Positions 2,109-16,080 of a stretch of 32,542 nucleotides of DNA are shown one piece after another. A program made the position numbers and the translations under genes. Location: the NCBI GenBank assembly GCA_031415535.1, contig JANORY010001020.1, forward strand, positions 1 through 32,542, in the 5' to 3' direction. The notes below the pieces were generated by a model. That model did not search any database, had not been told where the DNA came from, and worked only from the letters and a program-made list of their open reading frames with translations. The DNA comes from Burkholderiales bacterium (GTDB lineage: Bacteria; Pseudomonadota; Gammaproteobacteria; Burkholderiales; Burkholderiaceae_E). How positions within the stretch are numbered: the first letter of the stretch is position 1; each line of letters begins with the position of its first letter.

Positions 2109-3815
2109 GTGGCGGCAAACTTGGCAACAGCGAAAGTCCGCAATCGACGCTCATGTTCGAACGTTCTGTCGAAGTGGGCTTTGGTCGCATGTGCCGCGCA
2201 AGTTGGTCTTTCCGGGTGCGCGGGTCTTTATCCGCACGATGCCGAGCGCGCGGCCGCGACGGCGGGGATCGCCAAGAACCTGGACGCCGTCAGGCCGGAA
2301 CTGTTCGCCAAGGACCGGCGTTCGGATTTGCAGAAGCTCCTACAATACGAAGTCGATGCTCTGGCCGAGCGTAAGAAGGCCTCGCTCGCGCTGTACGCAC
2401 ACGTGATCAGCCAACCGTCGGCCGAGGTGGGTGTTGAATCGCCGTCTCCCTGGTTCACGGGGTTCTTCAGAGACACCAGGGCGCGTTTCGGCGATTCGTC
2501 GAAGCCGATCGACATCGGGGCACTTCTCGCAAGCGGGCGAATTCCAGCGTCCGTTGAAATGCGTCAGAAAGCGCTCGCCGAATCGATTGAAGAAATTTTC
2601 GGGTCTGCCGCGCTCGACAGTTCTTGCCCGAAATCGGATAAGTTGAGTGAGTACATCGACCAGCGCAAGCGGGCACTGCAGGGTACGCCGGTACCCGGGG
2701 GAGGACAAGTCTGGACAGCCGAGCTGCTGGATGAAGAGTTGGAAACGTATAAGGCCGAATGCGAGGGTATTAACAAAGCCCGCGAAGAGGTCATGATCGT
2801 GGGTCCAGAACTGAAATCCACGGCCAATGCCTTGGCGGAGGCGAAGGCCAAAGTCAGTGCCAGAGTCAACGTGTCAAAAAGCCGGCAGAAGGCCCTGCAG
2901 TCGGCGAAGAACGCCTTTGACAAGGCGATGATAGAGCTGGAGACCGCGCAAGGCACCGGCGCGGCGACCGAAAAGCGCTTGCGTGATTCGGCCGCACGAA
3001 TTAAGCGGCAACTCGATCGCCTCGCTAAGGTGGCACCGGAGGCTGCCTCCGACTCGAGATTATCCGCGTTGGCCGATTTGCTCGGCGCCGCCGGCGACGG
3101 CTCCGAGAGTGCGGCGAAGTCCGCCTCGTCGTCACTGGTCGTCGCCTCCGCGATACCTGGCTTGGCTAATGCCTGGCAGCAGTCGCGCACGGTGTTGCCG
3201 CCCGTTTCGCATCTGTTGCTCGCGCTGAACCACGAACTCGCCGAGGCCGAAAAGATACGCGCGATCCTGGCGGTAGAGAAGCGCGAACTCGCTCTGCTTG
3301 AAGAGCGTGGGCGTCTGCTGCGTTCTGAGTTGTCGAGTCGCGTGCGGACGCTACGCTTGGTTTGCAAAATGCACACCGGTTCGACCAACGCGTGCCAGCA
3401 GATCGACCTGATCGATGATGAAAAACCGAATGCTCGATTCGAATTGACGGCGAAGGATCCGCTGAACGGTAGCGCCGTTTCCGGCGTGTTCAAGAAATCA
3501 CTTCCCGAGCTCGAAAGCGGTCCCCCAACCGGAAAAATGACCGCAGGTGAGGTTCGCGAGTTGGCGATATCATTGCTCGAAAGCTATCAGAGCGCATTCG
3601 ATATCGCGCTGAACGGTCTATACGCGACAAATCTGATACACGAGAAGATGGGAATCGAGCACGAATCGGCTTATCGGCAGTGGTTCAATTTGACCCAGGT
3701 GCCGACCAAGCAGTTGGAGCACTACTACGCTGGCGGGGTCAAGCCGGCAGAGATCGCGGATCTGCTGCTCAAGGCCCTCGGGGTAACCGGTATCGCCATT
3801 GGAGTGAGCAAATGA
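2109..3815 (+). CDS. Hypothetical 568-aa predicted lipoprotein, largely helical/coiled-coil, with a short hydrophobic C-terminal tail; no domain recognised
   Basis: This is the longest ORF in the region, and its composition is protein-like (rich in E/K/L/A), whereas the antisense 309-aa ORF is Ser/Arg-rich. The start is GTG at 2109, with AGGAGA about 8-13 nt upstream. The N-terminus KVRNRRSCSNVLSKWALVACAAQVGLSGC is a signal peptide plus LSGC lipobox. The protein ends ...IADLLLKALGVTGIAIGVSK. Its stop overlaps the next gene's ATG (ATGA at 3812-3815). Confidence 0.7.
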   Translation: MAANLATAKVRNRRSCSNVLSKWALVACAAQVGLSGCAGLYPHDAERAAATAGIAKNLDAVRPELFAKDRRSDLQKLLQYEVDALAERKKASLALYAHVISQPSAEVGVESPSPWFTGFFRDTRARFGDSSKPIDIGALLASGRIPASVEMRQKALAESIEEIFGSAALDSSCPKSDKLSEYIDQRKRALQGTPVPGGGQVWTAELLDEELETYKAECEGINKAREEVMIVGPELKSTANALAEAKAKVSARVNVSKSRQKALQSAKNAFDKAMIELETAQGTGAATEKRLRDSAARIKRQLDRLAKVAPEAASDSRLSALADLLGAAGDGSESAAKSASSSLVVASAIPGLANAWQQSRTVLPPVSHLLLALNHELAEAEKIRAILAVEKRELALLEERGRLLRSELSSRVRTLRLVCKMHTGSTNACQQIDLIDDEKPNARFELTAKDPLNGSAVSGVFKKSLPELESGPPTGKMTAGEVRELAISLLESYQSAFDIALNGLYATNLIHEKMGIEHESAYRQWFNLTQVPTKQLEHYYAGGVKPAEIADLLLKALGVTGIAIGVSK

Positions 3816-4429
3816 AGCGATCGATCGTATTAGCTTGTTCGCTGGTCGCGGCGGGTTGTGCGACACCACCGGCCGTCTTTCAGCTTGCCGAAAAGACCGC
3901 CGAAGGCGCCGGCCAGTTCGTCGTACATTTGAATCGTCTCGAACAACACTATCAGGATATCGCCCGACAGCGCATGGATCTGGTCGTTCGGCGGGAGGCT
4001 GGGACCCGACAGTTCCAGGCGGATCTCGCCCGATACCGCGCGATCAATGCTGGCGGCGGTGGTCAGACCGATCAGAGCCGTTGGGTAGATTCCAAACTGC
4101 AGTTGTTTTCGCAGTTGGAGACGATTCAGCGCGAGGCGCTCAAGGATGATGCTTCGCGCAGCCGCGACCTGTTGGGAGGTCTCGTGCCCATCAAACCGTA
4201 CAGCGAAAAGCTGATGGAGATCGGCAGCGCGCTGGCGACACAAGGCACCGCCGACTCAAAGGAGCAGCGTTTGCGGTTTTTGGCGGGGTACCTGAAAGAG
4301 GTCCGAACGGACCTTAAATCGGCGCTGAACGAAGACAACGCGCTGGCGCAGTCTGCTTCCACCCTGATCGACAGCGCGAAGGCCGACCTGGAGTCGGCTT
4401 CGGCGAAATTGAAAATCGAGAAAAAGTAA
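3812..4429 (+). CDS. Hypothetical 205-aa predicted lipoprotein, helical; no domain recognised
   Basis: ORF 3680..4429 is trimmed to the ATG at 3812, which overlaps the upstream stop (ATGA). MKRSIVLACSLVAAGCATPP is a textbook signal peptide plus lipobox. The rest is rich in charged helix-forming residues. Confidence 0.7.
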   Translation: MKRSIVLACSLVAAGCATPPAVFQLAEKTAEGAGQFVVHLNRLEQHYQDIARQRMDLVVRREAGTRQFQADLARYRAINAGGGGQTDQSRWVDSKLQLFSQLETIQREALKDDASRSRDLLGGLVPIKPYSEKLMEIGSALATQGTADSKEQRLRFLAGYLKEVRTDLKSALNEDNALAQSASTLIDSAKADLESASAKLKIEKK

Positions 4430-4432
4430 ACG

Positions 4433-4840
4433 ATGAACGCAACTGCGACCAAACCGAACCCACAGGAGGCTGCGATGGCCACACCCCCAGAAGAACGAGA
4501 ATCCTTCGATCGACTGCGGCGAACCTCACGGACCCGGCATTTAGTACAAATGCAGATCATGGGGCTCCAGTTGTCGAAATTCGGTGCTACCGCGGCCGAG
4601 ACGATCGGCATCGACGCGCAGATCGCCCCGCTGGATTTGAAGGCTGACGATTTAAAGCAGCGCTTGATCGCAATGCAGGCGAATCGATTCCAATTCCCGG
4701 GTCCGAGCGGCGCAACGTTGACCGAGATTTCAAATCTACTGAAAGCCGTCGAATCGGCAGCGAACGCCGGTGAGAGCGCGAACAAAAAATTGAAGTTGAC
4801 CGCCTCGGTACTCGAATTGGCCGCTCGCGTGCTGGCTTAG
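4433..4840 (+). CDS. Hypothetical 135-aa protein without a signal peptide; third gene of the orphan operon
   Basis: The ATG at 4433 lies 3 nt after the upstream TAA (4427-4429) on the same strand. The composition is plausible for a helical protein, but I see no motifs. The start could instead be the second Met (MATPPEER). Confidence 0.55.
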   Translation: MNATATKPNPQEAAMATPPEERESFDRLRRTSRTRHLVQMQIMGLQLSKFGATAAETIGIDAQIAPLDLKADDLKQRLIAMQANRFQFPGPSGATLTEISNLLKAVESAANAGESANKKLKLTASVLELAARVLA

Positions 4841-5817
4841 GCACTTAATCCGACCTCGGATAGTCCCTGGTGCACGTTCGAGCGACCCAAGATGATCCGT
4901 TCGTTGCTCAACCGCTTCGACGGATCTGCGCCGTCGCGAGCTCAACGATCTGCTCTGGGATTGGCACATGTATGCAGAAAGTTTCCGTAGTGATGACTTT
5001 GCCAGCCACTTACTTGGAACTCGCTAAAGAGGCGGAAACGTCCAAGAACCGCATCTGTCCAAGAACAGGATCTTGACAAACCGACAACCTCTTTTCGAAT
5101 CGGGCGGTTCGAGCCGTTCACCTCTTTCAGGGTCTCGGCTCGCTGTGCCACTGCATAGAACGCAAATGGTCCGCTGGACCATACGGCCAGCAGCATCTGC
5201 ATCTAGTTAGAGCGCCCGCCGCTCTGGAGCCTCAAGTTCGATTCATCAGTTTTGGGGATGTCAATCTCGCGCTTGGGGTGCATACTCAGAGTGCCATTCT
5301 CCGAACAATTCGCGCGGCGTGTCGGCATCGAGTAAAAGCTGAAATCCACTGCGAATACCCGTTTGCGTGGGCCGAGCGGCACACCGATTCGAGCGCGAAA
5401 AGTTCATTCAGTCTCGGGCCTGCGGGCTGAGTCCCTGCGCTTGGCAATCAATCCACGCGCCGGTTACTGCCGACAGGTAGCGACACCACGCAAAGCATCG
5501 GAGAAATTCTTCGGAAACGAGCACCGGTCAGCACTCCCGGGGACCGATTCGAACTTGAGGCCGATCGAGCGACCCGCGCCGCACCGAAAATGCGAACCGA
5601 AAGTTGCGCTGACCCAATTGAACACAGTACGTGGGACGTACTGTTGTAACGTTCAGTCCAGTAGGGGATGCCTGAGCCAAACGGTTCACCGAGGTGGCCT
5701 GATCCGATGAATCCAATTCGTGCATTCAGGTTCTCGGTGTGGCTTCCGTTGTTGCACTTCGGATATTGATTCTCCGGCAGTCTTGATTGCTTGCGATATC
5801 AATCATGCAGCCTTAAT

Positions 5818-6426
5818 TTAGGCGAATTCAACTTCATTTGCCGCCAATCGTCTGCGCAGCTCCGCCAGCATTTCCTTCTCCGTGAAATTCATTGCCCAAG
5901 CCGGTCGCAACTGAAAGTGCGGCTGATCGACAAACGAAGTCCAGTTTCCACCCCACTCCAGCCCGAGGTCAACGCCGAGCACGCCCACCGCTTTGTATTT
6001 GGGCGATTCGCCCAGGTACCTGTTGCCGGCGAACACGCCGACGTCAAAGGCGATGCCAAAGTTGTGGTTGGAGAATCCGCCCTTGGCATTTGTCACAATC
6101 GGCCCTGGCTTGCTCCGGCCCTTAGCGAACAAGGCGTCTTGCTCGGCAAAGGTGCGCGAGCCGCCTATGATTTTGATTTGCACACCGACGCTCGCCGCCT
6201 TTTGCACTAGCGCACGCGCCATCGGTCTCACGACCGGCAGTAAGGTAGCGATGTTCAGTTCGCTTCGGTCGTCGACCTGCGTAATCGCCAGTTCGGGCGC
6301 TTTGCCGGCGATCGTCGGTTTGACGATTTTGGCGTAGATCGCGCCCCAGGTTTCAGCGCCGGCATGGCCATCGACCTGAACGCCCAGCTTCTTTTGCACA
6401 GCCGCAATCATTGCCTGGATTTCCAT
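5818..6426 (-). CDS. Phage-type endolysin: N-terminal peptidoglycan-binding domain (PG_binding_1-like) plus a zinc M15-family peptidase (L-alanyl-D-glutamate / D-Ala-D-Ala peptidase type)
   Basis: ORF 5818..6489 is trimmed to the ATG at 6426, with GGAGG (6435-6431) 4 nt upstream. MEIQAMIAAVQKKLGVQVDGHAGAETWGAIYAKI matches the PG-binding repeat (LxxDGxxGxxTxxA). The catalytic part has SNHNFGIAFD (His and Asp zinc ligands), WGGNW and DQPHFQL (second His), typical of M15 endolysins. There is no signal peptide. Confidence 0.85.
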   Translation of the reverse strand: MEIQAMIAAVQKKLGVQVDGHAGAETWGAIYAKIVKPTIAGKAPELAITQVDDRSELNIATLLPVVRPMARALVQKAASVGVQIKIIGGSRTFAEQDALFAKGRSKPGPIVTNAKGGFSNHNFGIAFDVGVFAGNRYLGESPKYKAVGVLGVDLGLEWGGNWTSFVDQPHFQLRPAWAMNFTEKEMLAELRRRLAANEVEFA

Positions 6427-6467
6427 AGGGCCTCCTTGACTCGGTGTTTGACAGACCATAGTAGTGC

Positions 6468-6739
6468 GTGCAGATCGCGGGCGCATCACCTGTCTTTGGG
6501 AGGTCTCGGCACCCTAAGCCGGTGAACTTCTTCAGCCGCGCCGATCTCGCCAAACACGTGCCCGAGTTGAGCGCCTCGGCGCTGTCGCGCAAATTGCTCT
6601 GGCTGCGCCAGCATCATCTGATCAAGAAGTCGCTCACACCTATCGCTACTACATCATTCGCATCGGTCGTGCCGCGATTGCCGCTGCCTGCTCGCTCACT
6701 GAATTCAACATCATTCCGGCAATCGCCCATGTTCGTTGA
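6468..6739 (+). pseudogene. Frameshifted, N-terminally truncated fragment of a conserved winged-helix-like hypothetical protein
   Basis: Frame A reads ...FFSRADLAKHVPELSASALSRKLLWLRQHHLIKK. A shift near 6629 puts the sequence in frame B, which reads VAHTYRYYIIRIGRAAIAAACSLTEFNIIPAIAHVR and stops at 6737-6739. The joined sequence resembles a C-terminal module (...LRLLR.HGLIKKV..THRY.LT..GR.AI.A...) that I recall from hypothetical proteins often found near mobile DNA. I cannot name the family. Confidence 0.35.
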
Positions 6740-6906: not shown

Positions 6907-7183
6907 TAGTGTAGTGTTTCATTAGTTCCGTGGCGAAAGATTCGATTCAAACGGCGATGAGCGCGCGGTCGATCCGCAGGGGTCGATATCGGGGATATCA
7001 ACCCCTGCGGGCGAGCGTGTGGGCGCGCCGTTTGATCGAACCCCTGCGGGGCGAGGTGAAATGGGGGCGACTGCGGCGTTACGAACCCGGGTCAATAGCC
7101 CCGCTCTTGACCCGGAACCGCGCCTTGCATTCGCCCCCATTGCACCTCGTCTTTCGCTACGGAACTAATGAAACACTACACTA
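6907..7183. repeat. 277-bp element bounded by a 34-bp inverted repeat (33/34 complementary) with nested long internal hairpins; MITE-like, inverton-like or structured-leader element overlapping the start of the downstream helicase gene
   Basis: The left arm is 6907-6940 (tagtgtagtgtttcattagttccgtggcgaaaga) and the right arm is 7150-7183 (tctttcgctacggaactaatgaaacactacacta). The only mismatch is G6932/T7158. Internal hairpins are 6974-6990/6994-7010 (17 bp, one mismatch, GGG loop) and 7052-7070/7131-7149 (19 bp, one mismatch). The motif aacccctgcggg occurs as a direct repeat at 7000 and 7039. Confidence 0.85.
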
Positions 7184-9960: not shown

Positions 9961-10773
9961 GTGTGGGTTACCATGCTCGCCGTTGATCGCGCCAGATTAA
10001 TCAGTCAATCATCAGGCAATCGTACCTTGGAGACTCCTGAATACGACCGTATGGATAACGCCGAGGACCATCTTTGGTGGTACCGCGCGCTGCACGCCTA
10101 CTTGCTCGATGCCTTCGCAACCAGTAATGCACTGCCCGGGACACCGGTTCTCGACGCCGGCTGTGGCTCGGGCGGTCTGTTGCGCACACTTGGCGCAGCC
10201 GAGCCGCAACGCCGTCGTGTCGGACTCGAGCGCCTTGAGCAGGCCGCCGCGCGCGCGCGGATCAAGAGCCGCTCCGAAGTGGTGGTCGGTACGGTGAACA
10301 CCTTGCCGTTTAAAGACAGCAGTTTCGGCGCAATCTTCAGCGCCGACGTCTTGTACCATCGTGACGTCGATCCGCAGCTCGCCGCTCGTGAGTCGCTGCG
10401 CTGTTTGATGCCAGGCGGTGTGCTGCTGGTCAACGTACCCGCATTCCAATGGCTGAGTTCCTATCACGACCAACGCGTGCACGGTGCCCGGCGCTTTAGC
10501 CGGCAACAACTCAAAGGCCTGCTGATCGACGCCGGCTTTACCCGCATCGCGCTGCATTATTGGAACAGTCTGTTGTTTCCGATCATGGTGGCGCGCCGCT
10601 TGCGCCCGTCCGCCAACCATACTGCTAACGATACCGCCAGCGACGTTGGGCAACTGCCCAACGCACTGAATACCGCACTGGCGAGTATCGTTGCCCTCGA
10701 GCGCAAGCTGATCCAGTGGGGCCTGCGATTTCCGGCCGGCGGATCATTACTCGCGATAGCATACAAACCATGA
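9961..10773 (+). CDS. Class I SAM-dependent methyltransferase
   Basis: Motif I is VLDAGCGSGGL and post-I/II is FGAIFSADVLYH. The start is GTG at 9961 with GGAG 8 nt upstream; an alternative ATG lies at 9973. The stop overlaps the next gene's start (ATGA at 10770-10773). Confidence 0.8.
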   Translation: MWVTMLAVDRARLISQSSGNRTLETPEYDRMDNAEDHLWWYRALHAYLLDAFATSNALPGTPVLDAGCGSGGLLRTLGAAEPQRRRVGLERLEQAAARARIKSRSEVVVGTVNTLPFKDSSFGAIFSADVLYHRDVDPQLAARESLRCLMPGGVLLVNVPAFQWLSSYHDQRVHGARRFSRQQLKGLLIDAGFTRIALHYWNSLLFPIMVARRLRPSANHTANDTASDVGQLPNALNTALASIVALERKLIQWGLRFPAGGSLLAIAYKP

Positions 10774-11792
10774 CGCAGGTCACGCTCCCGTCCCACTCAG
10801 TCCGAACCGAAGAGGCCGATGCCCGCAGCGCAAGCATAGCAGTCCGACGCTACGCGCTGTCGTTCGTCATTCCGGTGTATCGCGGTGCCAAGACCGTGGC
10901 CGCAGTGGTGGACGCCATCGCCACCTTGCGGGTTGAGGGCGGGCATGAAGTGGTACTGGTCAATGATGGCAGCCCGGACAATAGCGGCGAAGTCTGTCGT
11001 GAATTGGCGCGGCGCACGGATATTGCAGTCACGCTGGTCGATCTGTCGCGTAATTTTGGTGAACACAACGCCGTCATTACCGGTCTGCGTTACACCCGCG
11101 GCGACTATGTGGTGACGGTCGACGATGACCTTCAGAATCCGATTCACGAGGCCTTGCGCTTGTATCAGCACGCCCGAGCCGGTAGTTGGGATGTGGTCTA
11201 CACGCGCTACGCAGTCAAGCGCCACGCCGCCTGGCGTAATCTCGGCAGCCGTTTTGCGAACCTGGTGGGTGACTGGCTGCTCGACAAACCCAAGGGCCTG
11301 TACCTGTCGAGTTTTCGTTGCATGAATGCGCTGGTGGTGGGACACGTGATTCGTTATCAGGGACCGTTCCCGTACATTGACGGACTGGCCCTGCAGGTGG
11401 CCGGCCGCATCGACAGCATCGAAGTCGAACATCAGTCACGCGTACAAGGCCGCAGCAACTACACCTTGGCACGACTGATCCGGCTCTGGCTGAACTTGTT
11501 CGTCAACTTCTCGGTCAAGCCCTTGCGGGTGGCGACCATCGCCGGCTTGATCTTTACGGTGCTGGGCGCGATCGGCACAATCCTGGTACTGGCCGAGGCA
11601 CTGCTCGGCCGAACGCCAGCGGGCTGGGCCTCGCTGACCGCAGTGACCTTGGTACTGTCCGGCGTGCAGTTACTGATTCTCGGTGTGATCGGCGAGTACC
11701 TGGGCCATCTCGCGCTGACCAGCAACGGCAAGCCGCAGTCAATGGTGCGCGAGGTAGTACAACCGGCCGTTCACACAGCGCCCCCCTTATGA
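10770..11792 (+). CDS. GT2-family polyprenyl-phosphate glycosyltransferase (ArnC/GtrB-like) with two C-terminal TM helices
   Basis: ORF 10716..11792 is trimmed to the ATG at 10770, which overlaps the upstream stop. Motifs are FVIPVYRG, VVLVNDGSPDNS, LSRNFGEHNA and VTVDDDLQNP (the DxD region). Two hydrophobic helices lie near the C-terminus (IAGLIFTVLGAIGTILVL and LVLSGVQLLILGVIGEYL). Confidence 0.85.
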   Translation: MTQVTLPSHSVRTEEADARSASIAVRRYALSFVIPVYRGAKTVAAVVDAIATLRVEGGHEVVLVNDGSPDNSGEVCRELARRTDIAVTLVDLSRNFGEHNAVITGLRYTRGDYVVTVDDDLQNPIHEALRLYQHARAGSWDVVYTRYAVKRHAAWRNLGSRFANLVGDWLLDKPKGLYLSSFRCMNALVVGHVIRYQGPFPYIDGLALQVAGRIDSIEVEHQSRVQGRSNYTLARLIRLWLNLFVNFSVKPLRVATIAGLIFTVLGAIGTILVLAEALLGRTPAGWASLTAVTLVLSGVQLLILGVIGEYLGHLALTSNGKPQSMVREVVQPAVHTAPPL

Positions 11793-12124
11793 CACTACAT
11801 CACGCGGCGCTGGCCGCAGCAGTAATCGGCGGCATTTTTGGCCAACTGCTGCTCAAGGCAGGCTCGGTCGGTGCCACCGATTTGTGGACTCAACTCACGC
11901 GGTTGCCGACCTGGGCCGGACTGGCTTGTTATGGCGGTTCAGCGATACTTTATCTGGTGGCGCTGCAGGTCATACCGGTGTCGATTGCGTTCCCCAGCGT
12001 GGCGCTCAGTTATGCGGTGATCGCGGTGATTGGCGCCGTGTACTGGCAAGAGCCGGTGGGTTGGCAGCAAATGCTTGGAATCGCGCTGATTTTTGGCGGC
12101 GTGGTGATGCTCTATCGTCATTGA
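11789..12124 (+). CDS. Small 4-TM EamA/SMR-like membrane protein (ArnE/ArnF-like candidate flippase subunit)
   Basis: The protein is 111 aa and very hydrophobic, with 4 predicted helices. Its start overlaps the GT2 stop (ATGA at 11789-11792). Its position directly after an ArnC-like gene mirrors arnC...arnE/F logic. The 3' end overlaps the convergent aminotransferase gene by 7 nt. Confidence 0.6.
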   Translation: MTLHHAALAAAVIGGIFGQLLLKAGSVGATDLWTQLTRLPTWAGLACYGGSAILYLVALQVIPVSIAFPSVALSYAVIAVIGAVYWQEPVGWQQMLGIALIFGGVVMLYRH

Positions 12125-13272
12125 TCGCGCATGATTCGAGCCAGCGTCGTGCCCACTCGCACGACTTCGGCATCGGTCAGTTGCGGGAACATGGGCAGGC
12201 TCATCACTTGCGCTGCGGCCTGCTCGGTGCGCGGCAAACCGCCCGGTCCCTGCAAGGCATCGGCGTAGCCCGGTTGCCGATGCGCCGGCTCGGCATAGTG
12301 CACCGCTGTACCAATGCCTTGCGCGCTCAGCGCAGTTCGCAATCGATCGCGGATCGGCGAGGCCACCACGTATTGATGAAAAACTGATTCAGTCCCGAGC
12401 ACTCGAAGCGGCAATCGCAATTCGCTATCGGCAAGCAAGGCATCGTATTGCCCGGCGATCTGGACCCGACGTGTATTGTCGCGATCGAGATGTTCGAGCC
12501 GTACCCGCAGCATCGCGGCGTGCAGTTCATCGAGGCGACTATTGACCCCTGGCATTTCGCTGATCCGCGCGTGGCGCCAGCCATATTGGCGCAGGGCGCG
12601 TACCCGTTCGGCCACCCCGGCGTCGCGCGTAGCCACCAAACCGCCGTCACCAAAAGCGCCGAGATTTTTGGTCGGATAAAAGCTGAAGGCGGCAGCGTCA
12701 CCGACACTGCCAACGCGCCGCCCGCCCCACCAGGCACCATGTGCCTGGGCACAGTCTTCGACCAGCCAGGCACCGTATCGGCGGGTGATTGCTTCAATGG
12801 CATCAAGCTGCGCGGGCTGACCATAAAGATGTACCACCACCACCGCCGCCACGCGCTGCAACGCAAGGGTTTCGGCAAGATGCGCTGGGTCCATTGAATA
12901 ACCAGCGGCTTCGATATCAATCAACACCGGCGTGGCACCGATCATCTTGATGGCGGCGACCGTCGCTACAGCCGTGTGTGAGACGGTGGCGACGCCCTCC
13001 CCGGGCTTGACACCCAGTGCACGTAAGGCCAACGCTAGCGCATCGGTGCCGTTGGCGACACCGACCGCCTGCGCGACGCCGAGATATTGCGCGAAGGCAC
13101 GCTCAAACGCGTCGACCTGTTCGCCCAGCATATAGGTTCCGCTGAGCATTACCGTGGCGATCGCCGCATCGAGGGCCGAACGGTGTTGCAGGTAAGCGGC
13201 CCCTGGGGAAACCTGCGGGATTGTTGACGCTGCGGCTGACTCGCCGATCAGCGTCGAACCACCCCGGGTCAT
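12118..13272 (-). CDS. DegT/DnrJ/EryC1/StrS-family PLP-dependent sugar aminotransferase (ArnB-like)
   Basis: ORF 12118..13350 is trimmed to the ATG at 13272, which overlaps the upstream gene's stop (ATGA). Motifs are GVANGTDALALALRALGV and FSFYPTKNLGAFGDGG (the PLP lysine in YPTKNL). Confidence 0.85.
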   Translation of the reverse strand: MTRGGSTLIGESAAASTIPQVSPGAAYLQHRSALDAAIATVMLSGTYMLGEQVDAFERAFAQYLGVAQAVGVANGTDALALALRALGVKPGEGVATVSHTAVATVAAIKMIGATPVLIDIEAAGYSMDPAHLAETLALQRVAAVVVVHLYGQPAQLDAIEAITRRYGAWLVEDCAQAHGAWWGGRRVGSVGDAAAFSFYPTKNLGAFGDGGLVATRDAGVAERVRALRQYGWRHARISEMPGVNSRLDELHAAMLRVRLEHLDRDNTRRVQIAGQYDALLADSELRLPLRVLGTESVFHQYVVASPIRDRLRTALSAQGIGTAVHYAEPAHRQPGYADALQGPGGLPRTEQAAAQVMSLPMFPQLTDAEVVRVGTTLARIMRDQ

Positions 13273-14270
13273 GCCGATTGGGCGATCGGTTGGCGGAAGT
13301 ATTCGAGGGTTTGCGCAAGCCCTTGGCGCAAGGAGACTTTCGGGTGCCAACCGGTCAGGCTGCGTAGCAGCTTGTCGTCCGCGTAATAGTCACCGACGTC
13401 GATGCGCCGGCGGGCCGCCGGAAACTCGCGCACAACATACTGTCCACTACCATTGGCCTGCACCAGGGTGTCGGCAAGTTCCAGCAAACTCACCGGAGGA
13501 CAGCCGCCGACGTTATAAAACCGTCCGGCCATCGACGGTTCAGCGGCCGCCAAAAACGCGTCGACTGCGTCATCGACATAAGTCAAATCACGAAGCTGCT
13601 TGCCGCCCCAGACTTCAAACGGCTCACCGCGCAGCACACTGCTGATCCAGATTCCCAAAAACGTCTGCTTTGCGTCGCAGACTCGCATACGGGGGCCGAA
13701 GGTATTGGTCAGGCGCAGCGCGCTGGTCGCCAGACCATACACTCGACTGTACAACAGGTGATAGCCCTCGCCGGCCAGCTTGTTAAAGCCATTGACGTCA
13801 ACCGGATTGACGCTGTGCGACTCATCTACCGGCAAACTCTGGGCAACCCCGTACACCTGACGCGTACTGGCATAAACAATCATCGTCTCGGGGGCGTGCG
13901 CGCGGCACGTTTCCAACAGATGCAACTGAGCGGTGGCGTTGATTGACAGATCAGATTGCGGATCGGTCATCGAACCCTGATGACTGGTTTGACCGGCCAG
14001 ATTGAAGATGGTTTGTTGATCTTGTACCAGTGCCGGAAGAACACTGGCGTCGCGCAGGTCGAGCAATTCAATGCGAACCCGATTTGAAGCACCCTCCAAA
14101 TTCGCCAGATCGCCGCCATGTCCCGGCAGGAGATTATCGACGACCAGCACCCGCGCGCCCAGCGCATCGAGACGACGCACCAGGTTTGAGCCGATGAAGC
14201 CAAGCCCACCGGTTACCAAAACCTTGCGATTTCGCCAATCGATCGACTTATGAGGCGTTGCACTTAGCAT
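13269..14270 (-). CDS. NAD-dependent sugar-nucleotide epimerase/dehydratase (extended SDR)
   Basis: ORF 13269..14408 is trimmed to the ATG at 14270. The Rossmann motif is KVLVTGGLGFIGSNL, and the layout is that of a typical extended SDR (ASTRQVYG...). The exact substrate cannot be read from the sequence. Confidence 0.85.
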   Translation of the reverse strand: MLSATPHKSIDWRNRKVLVTGGLGFIGSNLVRRLDALGARVLVVDNLLPGHGGDLANLEGASNRVRIELLDLRDASVLPALVQDQQTIFNLAGQTSHQGSMTDPQSDLSINATAQLHLLETCRAHAPETMIVYASTRQVYGVAQSLPVDESHSVNPVDVNGFNKLAGEGYHLLYSRVYGLATSALRLTNTFGPRMRVCDAKQTFLGIWISSVLRGEPFEVWGGKQLRDLTYVDDAVDAFLAAAEPSMAGRFYNVGGCPPVSLLELADTLVQANGSGQYVVREFPAARRRIDVGDYYADDKLLRSLTGWHPKVSLRQGLAQTLEYFRQPIAQSA

Positions 14271-14376
14271 TTTGAACGGTTTATGGTCTTCAAGGGATTG
14301 TAGTTTAACGGCAACGCACATCCGCCGGATGACCGAGCTTGTGTCAAAAATTGCTAACGCCGGAAATCCGGAACGC

Positions 14377-15939
14377 TCACCGCTGCGGCGACTCGGCACG
14401 AACCACACGGGTGGCTTGCACCTGGCCGGCCCCGAGGATCATGTCGGTAACCCGCAAGGTATCACGTGCCCGATCCAGCAGATCAGCCAAGTCACCACGC
14501 TGCCAGGGGCCGTCGGTCAATATCCAATCACCGCTGTCGCCAGCCGGCGCGACCTGTGCTACCTCTATAGGTGCCAGCCGATTGCACAGCAAGTCGAGTC
14601 GCTGCCTGCTGCGAAAGCGCTGCCCGGGTCCCAACTCAAGGCGCAGACGCGGCAAGCTACGCAGTGCTCCTTGGGCGTAGTGGTCAAGCAAACAGGCGAC
14701 CTCGGGATCAATCACCAATATTCGGTCGCCGGCCCGCGCGCGCTGCGCAATATCAACGATGCTGTTGCTCCAGGGTCGCTGTTCGGCACGCCCGTTGACA
14801 TAGTCCCAACTGGTGAATAGACAGATTGTTACCCATGCAGCGCTGGCAATTCGGATTGCCGGACTCTGCCATTGCAGGGTGACGGCGGCACAACCCAACA
14901 ATATGGCCAGCGGAATCCACAGCCATAACGCGGTTCGGGACAATAAAATCGGCTGAACCAGCGCCGCCAGCACCAGGAACGTAGCACCGGTCACAGCCAT
15001 GACCACACCGATCGACATCACTGCGGCTTGCCTGCGCACTCGGTACGCGCTGAAAACCAAACTGGCCACGATCAAGGCGACCATCGGCCACGCGTACGTC
15101 AAGCCCCAGTAATGCGAACCCAGCATGATTTCGCGAACCAGCCTGGACAATACGATCGGGCTGAACGATGACGGAATCCAGGCGAGACCCAGTCGATTGG
15201 TTGCGAGTACGCCACTCGCCGCCATCACCTGCGGCAAACATAACAAGGCCACCACGCAGCAGGTAGCGAACCAGACCAGGAAGTACTGTTTGCCGGCTCG
15301 TGCGGCCCATCCAAAGTACAGACCGGCCACCGCCAGGCTGGTGATGAACACGATCGACGTGGTGTGCGTATAAAACGCCGCCACCGCCGCGAGCACCATC
15401 GGCCAGAGAAGCTGTAAAACCGCGGCAACGCCGTATGTTCGCTCGGAGCGCCACGCGGTCAACGCATTAACAAACGCCGAAATTGCAATCGCTATCCAAC
15501 ACTGCTGCAGTGCATAGGGGCGAATCTCAAGCGAAAATTCCAGCCCCAGGGCGGGCAGCAACCAGGCCAGCAACGCTACCGCCCCGGCGATCGGACCGGC
15601 CAGCCCACGCGTCGCCCGATAAACAAAAATGGCCGCCAGGCCGGTCAGTAGTAACGAGAACAAGCGGCTCGAAAGCTCCGAATCGCTGACCACCCGAATC
15701 CAGGCCCAAAGCGCTGAATAATACAGCGGCGGACTCGACTCCAGACGCCAACCTTCGCCCCACAATTGCGCCAACATCAGCCGCGCGTGATAGAGCGAAA
15801 ACGCCTCATCAATCCACAACGAAGGCATTGCGATCAGCGGCAGGCGAGTCAGCCATAACAAGACGGCGACCGAAATCAAGATCGCGAACAGCCGCGATGA
15901 TTGATGCGAGTGGTCTGCGCTCGGGGGTGCTGAAGGCAT
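14377..15939 (-). CDS. GT-C fold polytopic membrane glycosyltransferase (ArnT / PMT_2, GT39/GT83-like) with a C-terminal soluble domain
   Basis: ORF 14377..16065 is trimmed to the ATG at 15939, because the upstream part of the ORF reads through the tRNA-Thr gene and its terminator. The first loop carries WIDEAF (acidic DE motif) and PPLYY. About 11-12 hydrophobic helices are followed by a soluble tail of about 150 aa. There is no obvious SD, so the start is uncertain. Confidence 0.7.
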   Translation of the reverse strand: MPSAPPSADHSHQSSRLFAILISVAVLLWLTRLPLIAMPSLWIDEAFSLYHARLMLAQLWGEGWRLESSPPLYYSALWAWIRVVSDSELSSRLFSLLLTGLAAIFVYRATRGLAGPIAGAVALLAWLLPALGLEFSLEIRPYALQQCWIAIAISAFVNALTAWRSERTYGVAAVLQLLWPMVLAAVAAFYTHTTSIVFITSLAVAGLYFGWAARAGKQYFLVWFATCCVVALLCLPQVMAASGVLATNRLGLAWIPSSFSPIVLSRLVREIMLGSHYWGLTYAWPMVALIVASLVFSAYRVRRQAAVMSIGVVMAVTGATFLVLAALVQPILLSRTALWLWIPLAILLGCAAVTLQWQSPAIRIASAAWVTICLFTSWDYVNGRAEQRPWSNSIVDIAQRARAGDRILVIDPEVACLLDHYAQGALRSLPRLRLELGPGQRFRSRQRLDLLCNRLAPIEVAQVAPAGDSGDWILTDGPWQRGDLADLLDRARDTLRVTDMILGAGQVQATRVVRAESPQR

Positions 15940-15974
15940 TGGCAAAGTTAAAAAAAGCGGCAACCGATTCGTGT

Positions 15975-16004: not shown

Positions 16005-16080
16005 TGGTGCCGGCTACAAGAATCGAACTCGTGACCTTCGGTTTACAAAACCGCTGCTCTACCAACTGAGCTAAGCCGGC
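16005..16080 (-). tRNA. tRNA-Thr (anticodon UGU), with encoded CCA
   Basis: The reverse complement is GCCGGCTTAGCTCAGTTGGTAGAGCAGCGGTTTTGTAAACCGAAGGTCACGAGTTCGATTCTTGTAGCCGGCACCA. It folds into a 76-nt cloverleaf. The acceptor stem is GCCGGCT/AGCCGGC, the D stem is GCTC/GAGC, and the anticodon loop is TTTGTAA (TGT at positions 34-36). The T arm is ACGAG-TTCGATT-CTTGT. Confidence 0.93.

Follow-up and report, generated by a model that had tools for sequence, protein, structure and literature searches.

A co-inherited triad of two predicted lipoprotein genes and a small-protein gene that fits no family in the libraries searched

The unimolecular spanins (u-spanins) are small proteins, predicted to be beta-rich, with no periplasmic Cys in 58 known examples, and they are encoded by the last gene of a phage lysis cassette (PMC6139136). 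The glycine-zipper lipoproteins SlyB and YfgH combine a lipid anchor with a membrane-embedded Gly-rich segment and are envelope-stabilising (bioRxiv 10.64898/2025.12.22.696046, 10.64898/2026.06.08.730324), and in Wza the extreme C-terminal helix of an outer-membrane lipoprotein enters the outer membrane as part of an oligomer (PMC9601211). Here we analyse three adjacent genes, g1, g2 and g3 (the triad), on a stretch of 32,542 nucleotides from a Burkholderiales bacterium (assembly GCA_031415535.1, contig JANORY010001020.1, positions 1 to 32,542 of the forward strand). We refer to this whole stretch as the window. A first-pass annotation of it had described an operon with translational coupling, made up of two lipoprotein genes and the gene of a small protein that has no export signal. 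Our analysis supports that description and shows, moreover, that the triad is a real, ancient and self-contained three-gene unit that is inherited together. Our best reading is that g1 and g2 would form a lipid-anchored, disulfide-bonded helical envelope complex, with g3 as a putative cytoplasmic accessory. The features of the triad in the window are as follows.

2096-2101, + strand: Shine-Dalgarno-like GAGGAG of g1, 7 nt 5' of the GTG, read directly from the sequence
2109-3815, + strand: g1, GTG start, from the list of open reading frames (ORFs); predicted 568-aa lipoprotein precursor, mature chain of ~531 aa
2109-2219, + strand: g1 signal peptide and lipobox (..VGLSGC), L-S-G-C with Cys37 at 2217-2219
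3516-3812, + strand: conserved C-terminal domain of g1, aa 470-568, in which W525, P532, Y539 and G543 are the top non-Cys columns
3744-3812, + strand: g1 terminal segment P546-K568 (PAEIADLLLKALGVTGIAIGVSK), a Gly/Ala-rich hydrophobic tail of fixed length
3801-3804, + strand: GGAG ahead of g2, 7 nt upstream of the g2 start and within the final g1 codons
3812-3815, + strand: ATGA start/stop overlap of g1 and g2, the g1 TGA being 3813-3815; translational coupling
3812-4429, + strand: g2, predicted 205-aa lipoprotein, ATG at 3812-3814, lipobox AAGC
4433-4840, + strand: g3, 135 aa from ATG 4433 or 121 aa from ATG 4475; Cys-free, predicted helical, without signal peptide
4464-4469, + strand: AGGAGG of g3, a perfect motif 5 nt ahead of the internal ATG 4475

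Three genes inherited as one unit

How widespread is such a triad? A word-indexed homologue search of a collection of 5.8 billion protein clusters returned a single relative of g1, P0002, at 28% identity, which lies on a 2.8-kb contig with the same three-gene layout; the same search found no relative for g2 or g3. The g1 family came to light only by exhaustive profile search. A HMMER search with a g1+P0002 profile against 1.84 billion representatives (clusters at 50% identity) gave 475 homologues at E<=1e-3, 209 at E<=1e-10 and 56 at E<=1e-30, with most matches running up to the relative's own C-terminus. Pattern scans located 10 loci in GTDB species genomes, all of them metagenome-assembled genomes (MAGs) and assigned to two Burkholderiales, Polaromonas, Sulfuritalea, Sneathiellales, two "delta proteobacteria", Syntrophobacteraceae, Binatia and Rokubacteria, as well as 20 further loci in metagenomes, including soil metagenomes. 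The locus comparison that follows covers the window and L001-L031, 32 loci in all.

At 32 of 32 loci a lipobox protein of 194-217 aa begins exactly 4 nt ahead of the g1 stop, in an ATGA or a GTGA. Hidden Markov models built from the three alignments find the order g1-g2-g3 on one strand at every locus, with g2 present at all 32 and g3 at each of the 30 that are long enough, being absent only from two contigs that end too early. The genes outside the triad vary from locus to locus and include solute-binding proteins, transporters of the major facilitator superfamily (MFS), Usp, DoxX and AI-2E transporters; the sole recurring neighbour is an MFS_3 transporter, found 3-5 kb off in five lineages, an association that we judged weak. 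Thus the three genes occur together wherever the sequence is long enough, with differing flanks, and this is the co-conservation on which the first-pass annotation had made its idea of a module depend.

The earlier annotation had also made that idea depend on signs of purifying selection in real genes, and here too the answer is clear: all three are under purifying selection. In the least saturated pair of loci (L015/L016) the Nei-Gojobori ratio of nonsynonymous to synonymous substitution rates (dN/dS) is 0.16 for g1, 0.20 for g2 and 0.23 for g3, and over all three genes and pairs it ranges over 0.07-0.40. The three proteins diverge in parallel. Moreover, the GC content at third codon positions (GC3) of g1, g2 and g3 is 0.66-0.69, equal to that of the housekeeping genes of the window (bc1, tat, his).

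The ORF list and the sequence itself confirm the three packed same-strand ORFs and the ATGA overlap of the first two genes. The statement that genes 2 and 3 lie 3 nt apart holds if g3 begins where its ORF opens, at ATG 4433, 3 nt past the g2 stop. However, the more likely g3 start is ATG 4475, since the AGGAGG and a record of the 121-aa form in a public protein collection (P0004) both favour it, and in that case the gap would be 45 nt instead of 3 nt. The close linkage of g2 and g3 stands whichever start is used. At the g1/g2 junction, in 3800-3815 of the window and at the matching sites in L001-L031, the last conserved g1 codons (..I-G-V-S/A-x) double as the purine-rich Shine-Dalgarno stretch of g2, which reads GGAGTGAG in the window. 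The g1 tail codons thus supply the g2 Shine-Dalgarno, and therefore the same bases encode a protein tail and a ribosome-binding site.

Two related 'delta' MAG loci, L009 (11911-12974) and L010 (12117-13153), carry two additional genes 3' of g3. The first encodes a protein of ~175 aa containing ..AIQESLL..GPALGLFQMEP.., which resembles a lytic transglycosylase by eye only; we set that identity aside, the protein having no Pfam or PDB sequence match. The second encodes ~180 aa with a hydrophobic N-terminal segment. Neither gene was found in the other loci searched.

Two predicted lipoproteins and a small third protein

Both g1 and g2 begin with a bacterial lipoprotein signal of the general type, which has a positive n-region, a hydrophobic h-region and [LVI][ASTVI][GAS]C. 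In g1 the n-region carries K9, R11, R13, R14 and K22 and is followed by ..WALVACAAQVGLSG-C. Cys37 is kept in 58 of 59 aligned members of the g1 family, whose proteins are mostly 500-580 aa long, and a strict lipobox is present in 97 of 115 full-length relatives; the +2 residue is Ala, Ser or Gly in most of them and Asp in 1 only. The g2 signal is MKRSIVLACSLVAAG-C, with lipobox A-A-G-C and Cys16 at 3857-3859, and in the family alignment every g2 member has a lipobox.

Right after the Cys predicted to be acylated, alignments of the g1 family show a block C-x-G-x-x-LYD ... E..NLD.LL..EL. Behind it lies a helical middle that is poorly conserved and varies in length, next an AP.VS.LLIEL.HQ block, a Cys-rich knob and a C-terminal domain, which ends W..NL..VP..QL.AYY..G-I-K-P-A-E-I-A-D-L-I-V-K-A-L-G-F-T-A-I-A-I-G-V-S-x. 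Six Cys columns of the mature protein are each kept in 51-57 of 60 members, and the remaining best-conserved columns are Gly, Pro, Trp, Leu and Tyr, with two His columns reaching only 39-42 of 60. Such a pattern is typical of a structural protein stabilised by disulfides in an oxidising compartment: with Cys, Gly, Pro, Trp and Leu conserved and no catalytic motif among the columns, we expect g1 to be a scaffold or tether rather than an enzyme.

Several other candidates within the g1 family were considered and rejected. An ExxH/DxxH metal site fails because the His columns are only ~65-70% conserved and the acidic partners are missing in the window copy. The apparent domain fusions in long g1 relatives are merely insertions in the variable middle, and the 1038-aa ORF of L011 is an ORF-extension artefact. 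In P0020 (1134 aa), a g1 homologue is fused in frame behind a membrane protein of ~600 aa that has no counterpart in the other loci.

The first description of g1, a signal peptide with lipobox at one end and a hydrophobic C-terminus at the other, is borne out at both ends (L-S-G-C with Cys37; tail hydropathy 1.71). The tail PAEIADLLLKALGVTGIAIGVSK is the only hydrophobic stretch of g1 besides the signal peptide; its Kyte-Doolittle mean over 19 residues is 1.71 in the window and 1.75 in P0002. In the 52 in-register tails of the family, Lys stands at -14 from the C-terminus in 51, and Gly at -11 and at -4 in 50; small and bulky residues alternate, and a polar one comes last. At 0.35-0.63, with hydrophobicity averaging 1.3-1.6, the hydrophobic moment is low, so that the tail is not an amphipathic surface helix. 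Behind the invariant Lys there are 12-13 uncharged residues, with Asp551 and Lys555 inside the segment; by its hydropathy and uncharged length, the tail is a borderline transmembrane candidate. Its conservation is far above the needs of a plain anchor, which suggests specific packing, either in a membrane-embedded oligomer or on a partner.

Directly behind its own putatively acylated Cys, g2 has the block C-A-T-P..V..LAEKTAAN.G, and its mature chain of 189 aa has no further Cys. An AlphaFold2 model made from the g2 sequence alone has four long helices at low confidence (predicted local distance difference test, pLDDT, 55), in keeping with the first-pass view of gene 2 as a helical lipoprotein. 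For g3, which had been described as a protein with no export signal, we likewise find neither a signal peptide nor a hydrophobic N-terminus. It is predicted to form three helices, parted by an NP[ST] turn and a P[ST]..QV cap, and Cys occurs in 0 of 23 aligned sequences. Since it has no signal peptide and no homologue has a Cys, g3 presumably stays in the cytoplasm. Profile-profile comparison of the g1, g2 and g3 families found none related to another.

Judged by sequence comparison, the triad fits no described sequence family or gene-cluster type in the libraries searched, which agrees with the failure of the first-pass annotation to assign any of the three by eye. Searches of the window proteins against Pfam, NCBIfam, PHROGs and PADLOC gave only sub-threshold coiled-coil noise (ALIX, tape-measure, Rad50, Mce and PgrA, all far under the cut-offs); Pfam searches of 60 g1, 12 g2 and 11 g3 relatives, and NCBIfam searches of the 60 g1 relatives, gave no family; and single-sequence and profile searches of PDB chains gave only coiled-coil or designed-helix noise. 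An OutS match in the PDB search was discarded, being limited to the signal peptide. RefSeq/PGAP labels the Polaromonas homologues of all three "hypothetical protein", and other sources use the same label or leave them unnamed, except for one record from the Joint Genome Institute (JGI) whose automatic name, "YlbF-family regulator", is supported by nothing else. A literature search with the g1 tail motif and a RefSeq accession found no papers.

Structure prediction, which had been proposed as a check, returned no meaningful fold match, but the models are too poor (pLDDT 42 and 55) to settle the fold. The AlphaFold2 model of g1, made from a 2-sequence alignment, is all helix by DSSP, with helices of 60 and 76 residues and a mean pLDDT of 42. 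Foldseek comparison of the g1 and g2 models with the PDB gave E>=0.01 and template-modelling scores (TM) <0.45, the matches being to generic coiled coils of BAR, SMC and dynein-stalk type, which we discarded as meaningless. By "new" we therefore mean unnamed and unassignable; a new mode of action is not implied, and the fold comparison rests on models from shallow alignments.

Surroundings of the triad in the window

The features around the triad in the window are these.

34-225, + strand: C-terminal half of a membrane protein of the Phage_holin_4_2 family (PF04020), E 3e-17; the window start truncates its gene
230-1717, - strand: S9/S15 serine hydrolase, lipoprotein-type, with a long Ala/Pro/Val-rich linker
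1734-2082, + strand: WD40 repeat remnant (..ISGGDGGDPSVKLWSF..), Pfam E 9e-5, 23.3 bits against a 27-bit cut-off
4841-5817: ORF-poor tract of ~1 kb from g3 to the M15 gene, with no Pfam-matching ORF and short stop-free frames only
5818-6489, - strand: Peptidase_M15_4/VanY-type peptidoglycan peptidase, likely start MEIQAM.., not the first GTG
6907-7183: 277-bp element resembling a miniature inverted-repeat transposable element (MITE), whose terminal inverted repeats are 34 nt long (97% complementary) and enclose a further inverted repeat of 23 nt
9961-15950 and 16005-16080: sugar/lipid modification cluster (methyltransferase, GT2, DegT-type aminotransferase, epimerase/dehydratase, polytopic protein) and tRNA-Thr(TGT)

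The right two-thirds of the window is core chromosome, comprising his, tatABC, a DegP-type protease, petABC, sspAB, tRNA-Thr, the sugar-modification cluster and a DinG-type helicase. Relatives at ~80% nucleotide identity keep the gene order of the window from his up to the helicase start, as far as synteny was traced, and the triad lies beyond that limit; the record of one relative, contig JAYUHC010000174.1 of GCA_043767345.1, runs 13.6 kb further on that side, below its position 13635. In the collection of 5.8 billion clusters nothing is more than 28% identical to g1, although the core proteins of the relatives are included, so that the nearest relatives probably lack the triad or have not conserved it. 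In the window the triad thus occupies a variable region that apparently has no counterpart in these relatives. The MITE-like element overlaps the start of the DinG-type helicase gene, exactly where the traced synteny stops. The sugar/lipid cluster is not an island, because the whole block is syntenic in the relatives; its ~517-aa polytopic membrane protein has no Pfam match and is GT-C/ArnT-like by eye.

Some details of the other features may be added. The linker of the serine hydrolase is made partly from 12-nt tandem repeats (1225-1311). The WD40 remnant has a possible frameshifted continuation and is without a start codon or full ORF, and the ORF-poor tract holds a 17-nt tandem duplication (5040-5073). 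An N-terminal stretch of the M15 peptidase resembles a peptidoglycan-binding repeat by eye; elsewhere the triad is not regularly flanked by this peptidase. The decayed or mobile-looking setting that had been noted around the operon is a reasonable impression for the window, where we find the WD40 remnant, the ORF-poor tract, the M15 peptidase and the variable region, but it is not a property of the module elsewhere. The further idea that such a setting marks a defence or envelope-attack island is not supported: PADLOC is empty, and the flanks at other loci are ordinary and mutually unrelated.

Readings of the triad and comparison with known systems

What might such a unit do? The reading we favour, tentatively and at a little short of an even chance, is that the triad encodes a complex with a structural or maintenance role in the cell envelope of certain uncultured diderm soil bacteria, its function being a guess. 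From their signals we infer that g1 and g2 would be exported by Sec and lipid-modified at Cys37 and Cys16. In E. coli an Asp at position +2 causes retention at the inner membrane, and since g1 and g2 do not carry this signal, both are probably at the outer membrane, probably on its periplasmic face. The universal 4-nt overlap of their genes points to co-production, most simply because the two proteins assemble in one complex. The body of g1 would be elongated and mainly helical, braced by probable disulfides (two in the window, three in the family), and its tail would be buried in a membrane or in an oligomer interface. As for g3, it would most likely be a dedicated accessory in the cytoplasm, either an export or assembly chaperone or a regulator.

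A number of points weigh against this picture. The E. coli +2 rule is not valid in all phyla, which bears on sorting to the outer membrane, and in one g1 relative, P0078, an N-terminal transmembrane segment replaces the lipobox. The alternation of small and bulky residues in the tail is also compatible with a beta-strand, and, with models of pLDDT 42 and 55 only, a remote relation to a known fold may exist. A cytoplasmic g3 as the partner of a periplasmic complex is awkward, and the link is putative. A scan upstream of g1 for sigmaE, sigma54 and extracytoplasmic function (ECF) patterns found no conserved promoter of the envelope-stress kind; promoter and terminator counts across the window are at chance level. 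Finally, the window copy of g1 is the most divergent member of the family: its identity to the other loci averages 23%, where these share 25-39% with one another. Two of the six conserved Cys are gone and 47 of ~100 consensus columns are not matched, so that this copy may function differently from the other members.

A bolder version, which we consider unlikely, would make the triad a trans-envelope lipoprotein machine that has so far gone unrecognised in uncultured diderm soil bacteria. Here g1 and g2 would form a hetero-oligomer anchored by lipid in the outer membrane; the disulfide-braced helical rod of g1-g2 would cross the periplasm; the Gly/Ala zipper tail would enter the inner membrane, or else the outer membrane as an oligomeric bundle; and g3 would control assembly or activity from the cytoplasm. 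If true, it would amount to a new kind of tether or conduit in the envelope, with no relation to Lpp, Tol-Pal, spanins, OPX or Mce.

Less likely again is a spanin-like tether or fusion device, with the lipid of g1 in the outer membrane, its C-terminus as a stop-transfer segment in the inner membrane and g2 resembling an o-spanin, the complex either setting and holding the distance between the membranes or fusing them in a domesticated lysis or type-10-secretion-like process. It was this kind of tether that the topology had first called to mind, and g1 does pair a lipobox with a hydrophobic C-terminus (Kyte-Doolittle means of 1.71 and 1.75, as given above) and is predicted to have long helices. 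In the window there is an M15 peptidase 1 kb downstream, along with the PF04020 holin-family fragment at 34-225, and L009 and L010 have the extra gene with an E..GLFQ motif, transglycosylase-like by eye only. However, peptidoglycan hydrolases do not consistently accompany the triad, no PDB sequence matches the candidate transglycosylase, and no g1 relative was found in 2.9 million viral contigs or, by tblastn, in plasmid and phage records. Moreover, the tail has only 12-13 uncharged residues behind its Lys, with Asp551 and Lys555 within the segment; only 1-2 residues would enter the cytoplasm; the tail is conserved far beyond what an anchor needs; and g1 is ~4x the size of a u-spanin, helical, and has 4-6 conserved Cys. 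The spanin-like variant thus shares the topology and fails the tests run; the likeness of g1 to a spanin is purely topological, and to that extent the analogy of the first-pass annotation stands.

Could the triad instead be a lipoprotein toxin with helper and immunity, of the SitA-like or bacteriocin-operon kind, where g1 damages membranes, g2 serves delivery and g3 confers immunity? We regard this as improbable. It would account for a small cytoplasmic protein gene right behind two genes for exported lipoproteins, and the Gly/Ala-rich hydrophobic tail of g1 resembles membrane-active peptides; the window triad lies in a variable region and is seemingly missing in close relatives. Lipoprotein toxins with cytoplasmic immunity proteins are known, SitA being one (PMC8546572). 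But the most conserved part of g1 is its C-terminus and the variable part its middle, the reverse of polymorphic toxins, and Pfam and NCBIfam searches found no toxin domain in g1, g2, g3 or the g1 relatives. Pore-formers are normally countered by immunity proteins that sit in the membrane, whereas g3 is soluble, and the triad is present in a single copy per locus with no orphan-immunity arrays.

More improbable than a toxin is the proposal that the family is real and the window copy a decaying or non-functional relic. The divergence described above (mean identity 23%, two of six Cys and 47 of ~100 consensus residues lost), together with a window g3 that is without the NP[ST] turn, and with the WD40 remnant and ORF-poor tract around the triad, would suit a relic. 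Yet the copy is intact, with three ORFs over 2.7 kb, both lipoboxes, the ATGA overlap, the Shine-Dalgarno sites and the tail preserved, and its codon-position GC pattern matches that of housekeeping genes.

There is a slimmer chance that the triad is a periplasmic carrier or transporter accessory, for example a binder of hydrophobic or metal ligands working with the MFS_3 exporter. Helical lipoproteins often serve as binding proteins, the transporter gene stands 3-5 kb from the triad in five lineages, and noise-level matches to the helical part of Mce proteins were seen; but that gene is missing at most loci, including the window, and elsewhere is non-adjacent with no fixed strand, and there is no conserved ligand-type motif, the His columns reaching only 39-42 of 60. 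Slimmest of all is an anti-phage defence or surface-exclusion module of envelope lipoproteins, for which one could cite the variable chromosomal context in the window and the weak matches to TIGR04320 (surface exclusion, 22.7 bits against a cut-off of 70) and LmuB (E 0.28), both of which, however, lie in the coiled-coil region and far under threshold, while PADLOC (PADLOC-DB 2.0) has no family for any of the proteins, with zero matches for g2 and g3, the neighbours elsewhere are solute-binding proteins, MFS, Usp and DoxX, and the module is not in plasmids or phages. Thus the phage, defence and toxin readings find no support.

If the favoured reading, a structural or maintenance complex of the envelope, is true, then poorly studied soil and sediment phyla (Burkholderiales, Desulfobacterota-type lineages, Binatia and Rokubacteria) would share an envelope component that databases have left unnamed, and a novel means by which the Gram-negative envelope is anchored or bridged could come to light. 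Compact and syntenic, the module offers testable handles in the 4-nt overlap, found in 32 of 32 loci, and in the near-invariant 14-residue tail. More immediately, naming the three families would clear three "hypothetical protein" labels in hundreds of genomes.

How, finally, does the triad compare with the systems described to date? Like a u-spanin of the phage T1 gp11 type, g1 joins an N-terminal outer-membrane lipoprotein signal and a hydrophobic C-terminal segment in one chain. It differs in having a mature chain of 531 aa that is predicted, at low confidence, to be helical, with 4-6 conserved Cys and a tail of ~12 uncharged residues, and in being chromosomal, without phage relatives, and always accompanied by g2 and g3, with unrelated flanks in the 32 loci. 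In contrast to a lysis cassette, the M15 peptidase and holin-family fragment of the window are on other strands, 1-2 kb off, and not conserved elsewhere. The Rz/Rz1 pair of phage lambda shares with the triad overlapping genes for envelope proteins, a small outer-membrane lipoprotein and a larger partner that is helical or coiled-coil. However, the i-spanin has an N-terminal transmembrane domain where g1 has a cleavable lipoprotein signal, the mature g2 chain is 189 aa long, Rz1 is embedded in or extensively overlaps Rz where the overlap here is 4 nt, and there is neither phage context nor sequence similarity.

Among the lipoproteins of bacteria themselves, SlyB and YfgH resemble g1 in being lipid-anchored with an extra Gly-rich hydrophobic segment. 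They are small proteins with a two-helix GxxxG zipper that Pfam recognises, whereas g1 and 60 relatives have no such match (E<=0.01), and in g1 only one terminal segment, its Gly spaced 7 residues apart, follows a 500-aa helical body. Wza, as an outer-membrane polysaccharide export (OPX) protein, combines Poly_export and SLBB domains with an amphipathic helix at its C-terminus and belongs to polysaccharide-export loci; g1 is without those domains (no Pfam match), its tail has a low hydrophobic moment, and its neighbours are unrelated to polysaccharide export. The SitA cassette of myxobacteria likewise brings together a lipoprotein, an accessory and a small cytoplasmic protein (PMC8546572), but its toxins are polymorphic at the C-terminus, where the last ~100 aa of g1 are the most conserved, and g1 has no toxin domain and the gene order is different. 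The nearest analogies of the triad are thus functional or topological, not memberships: each of these systems shares part of its plan with g1-g2-g3, and each fails at least one defining feature tested.

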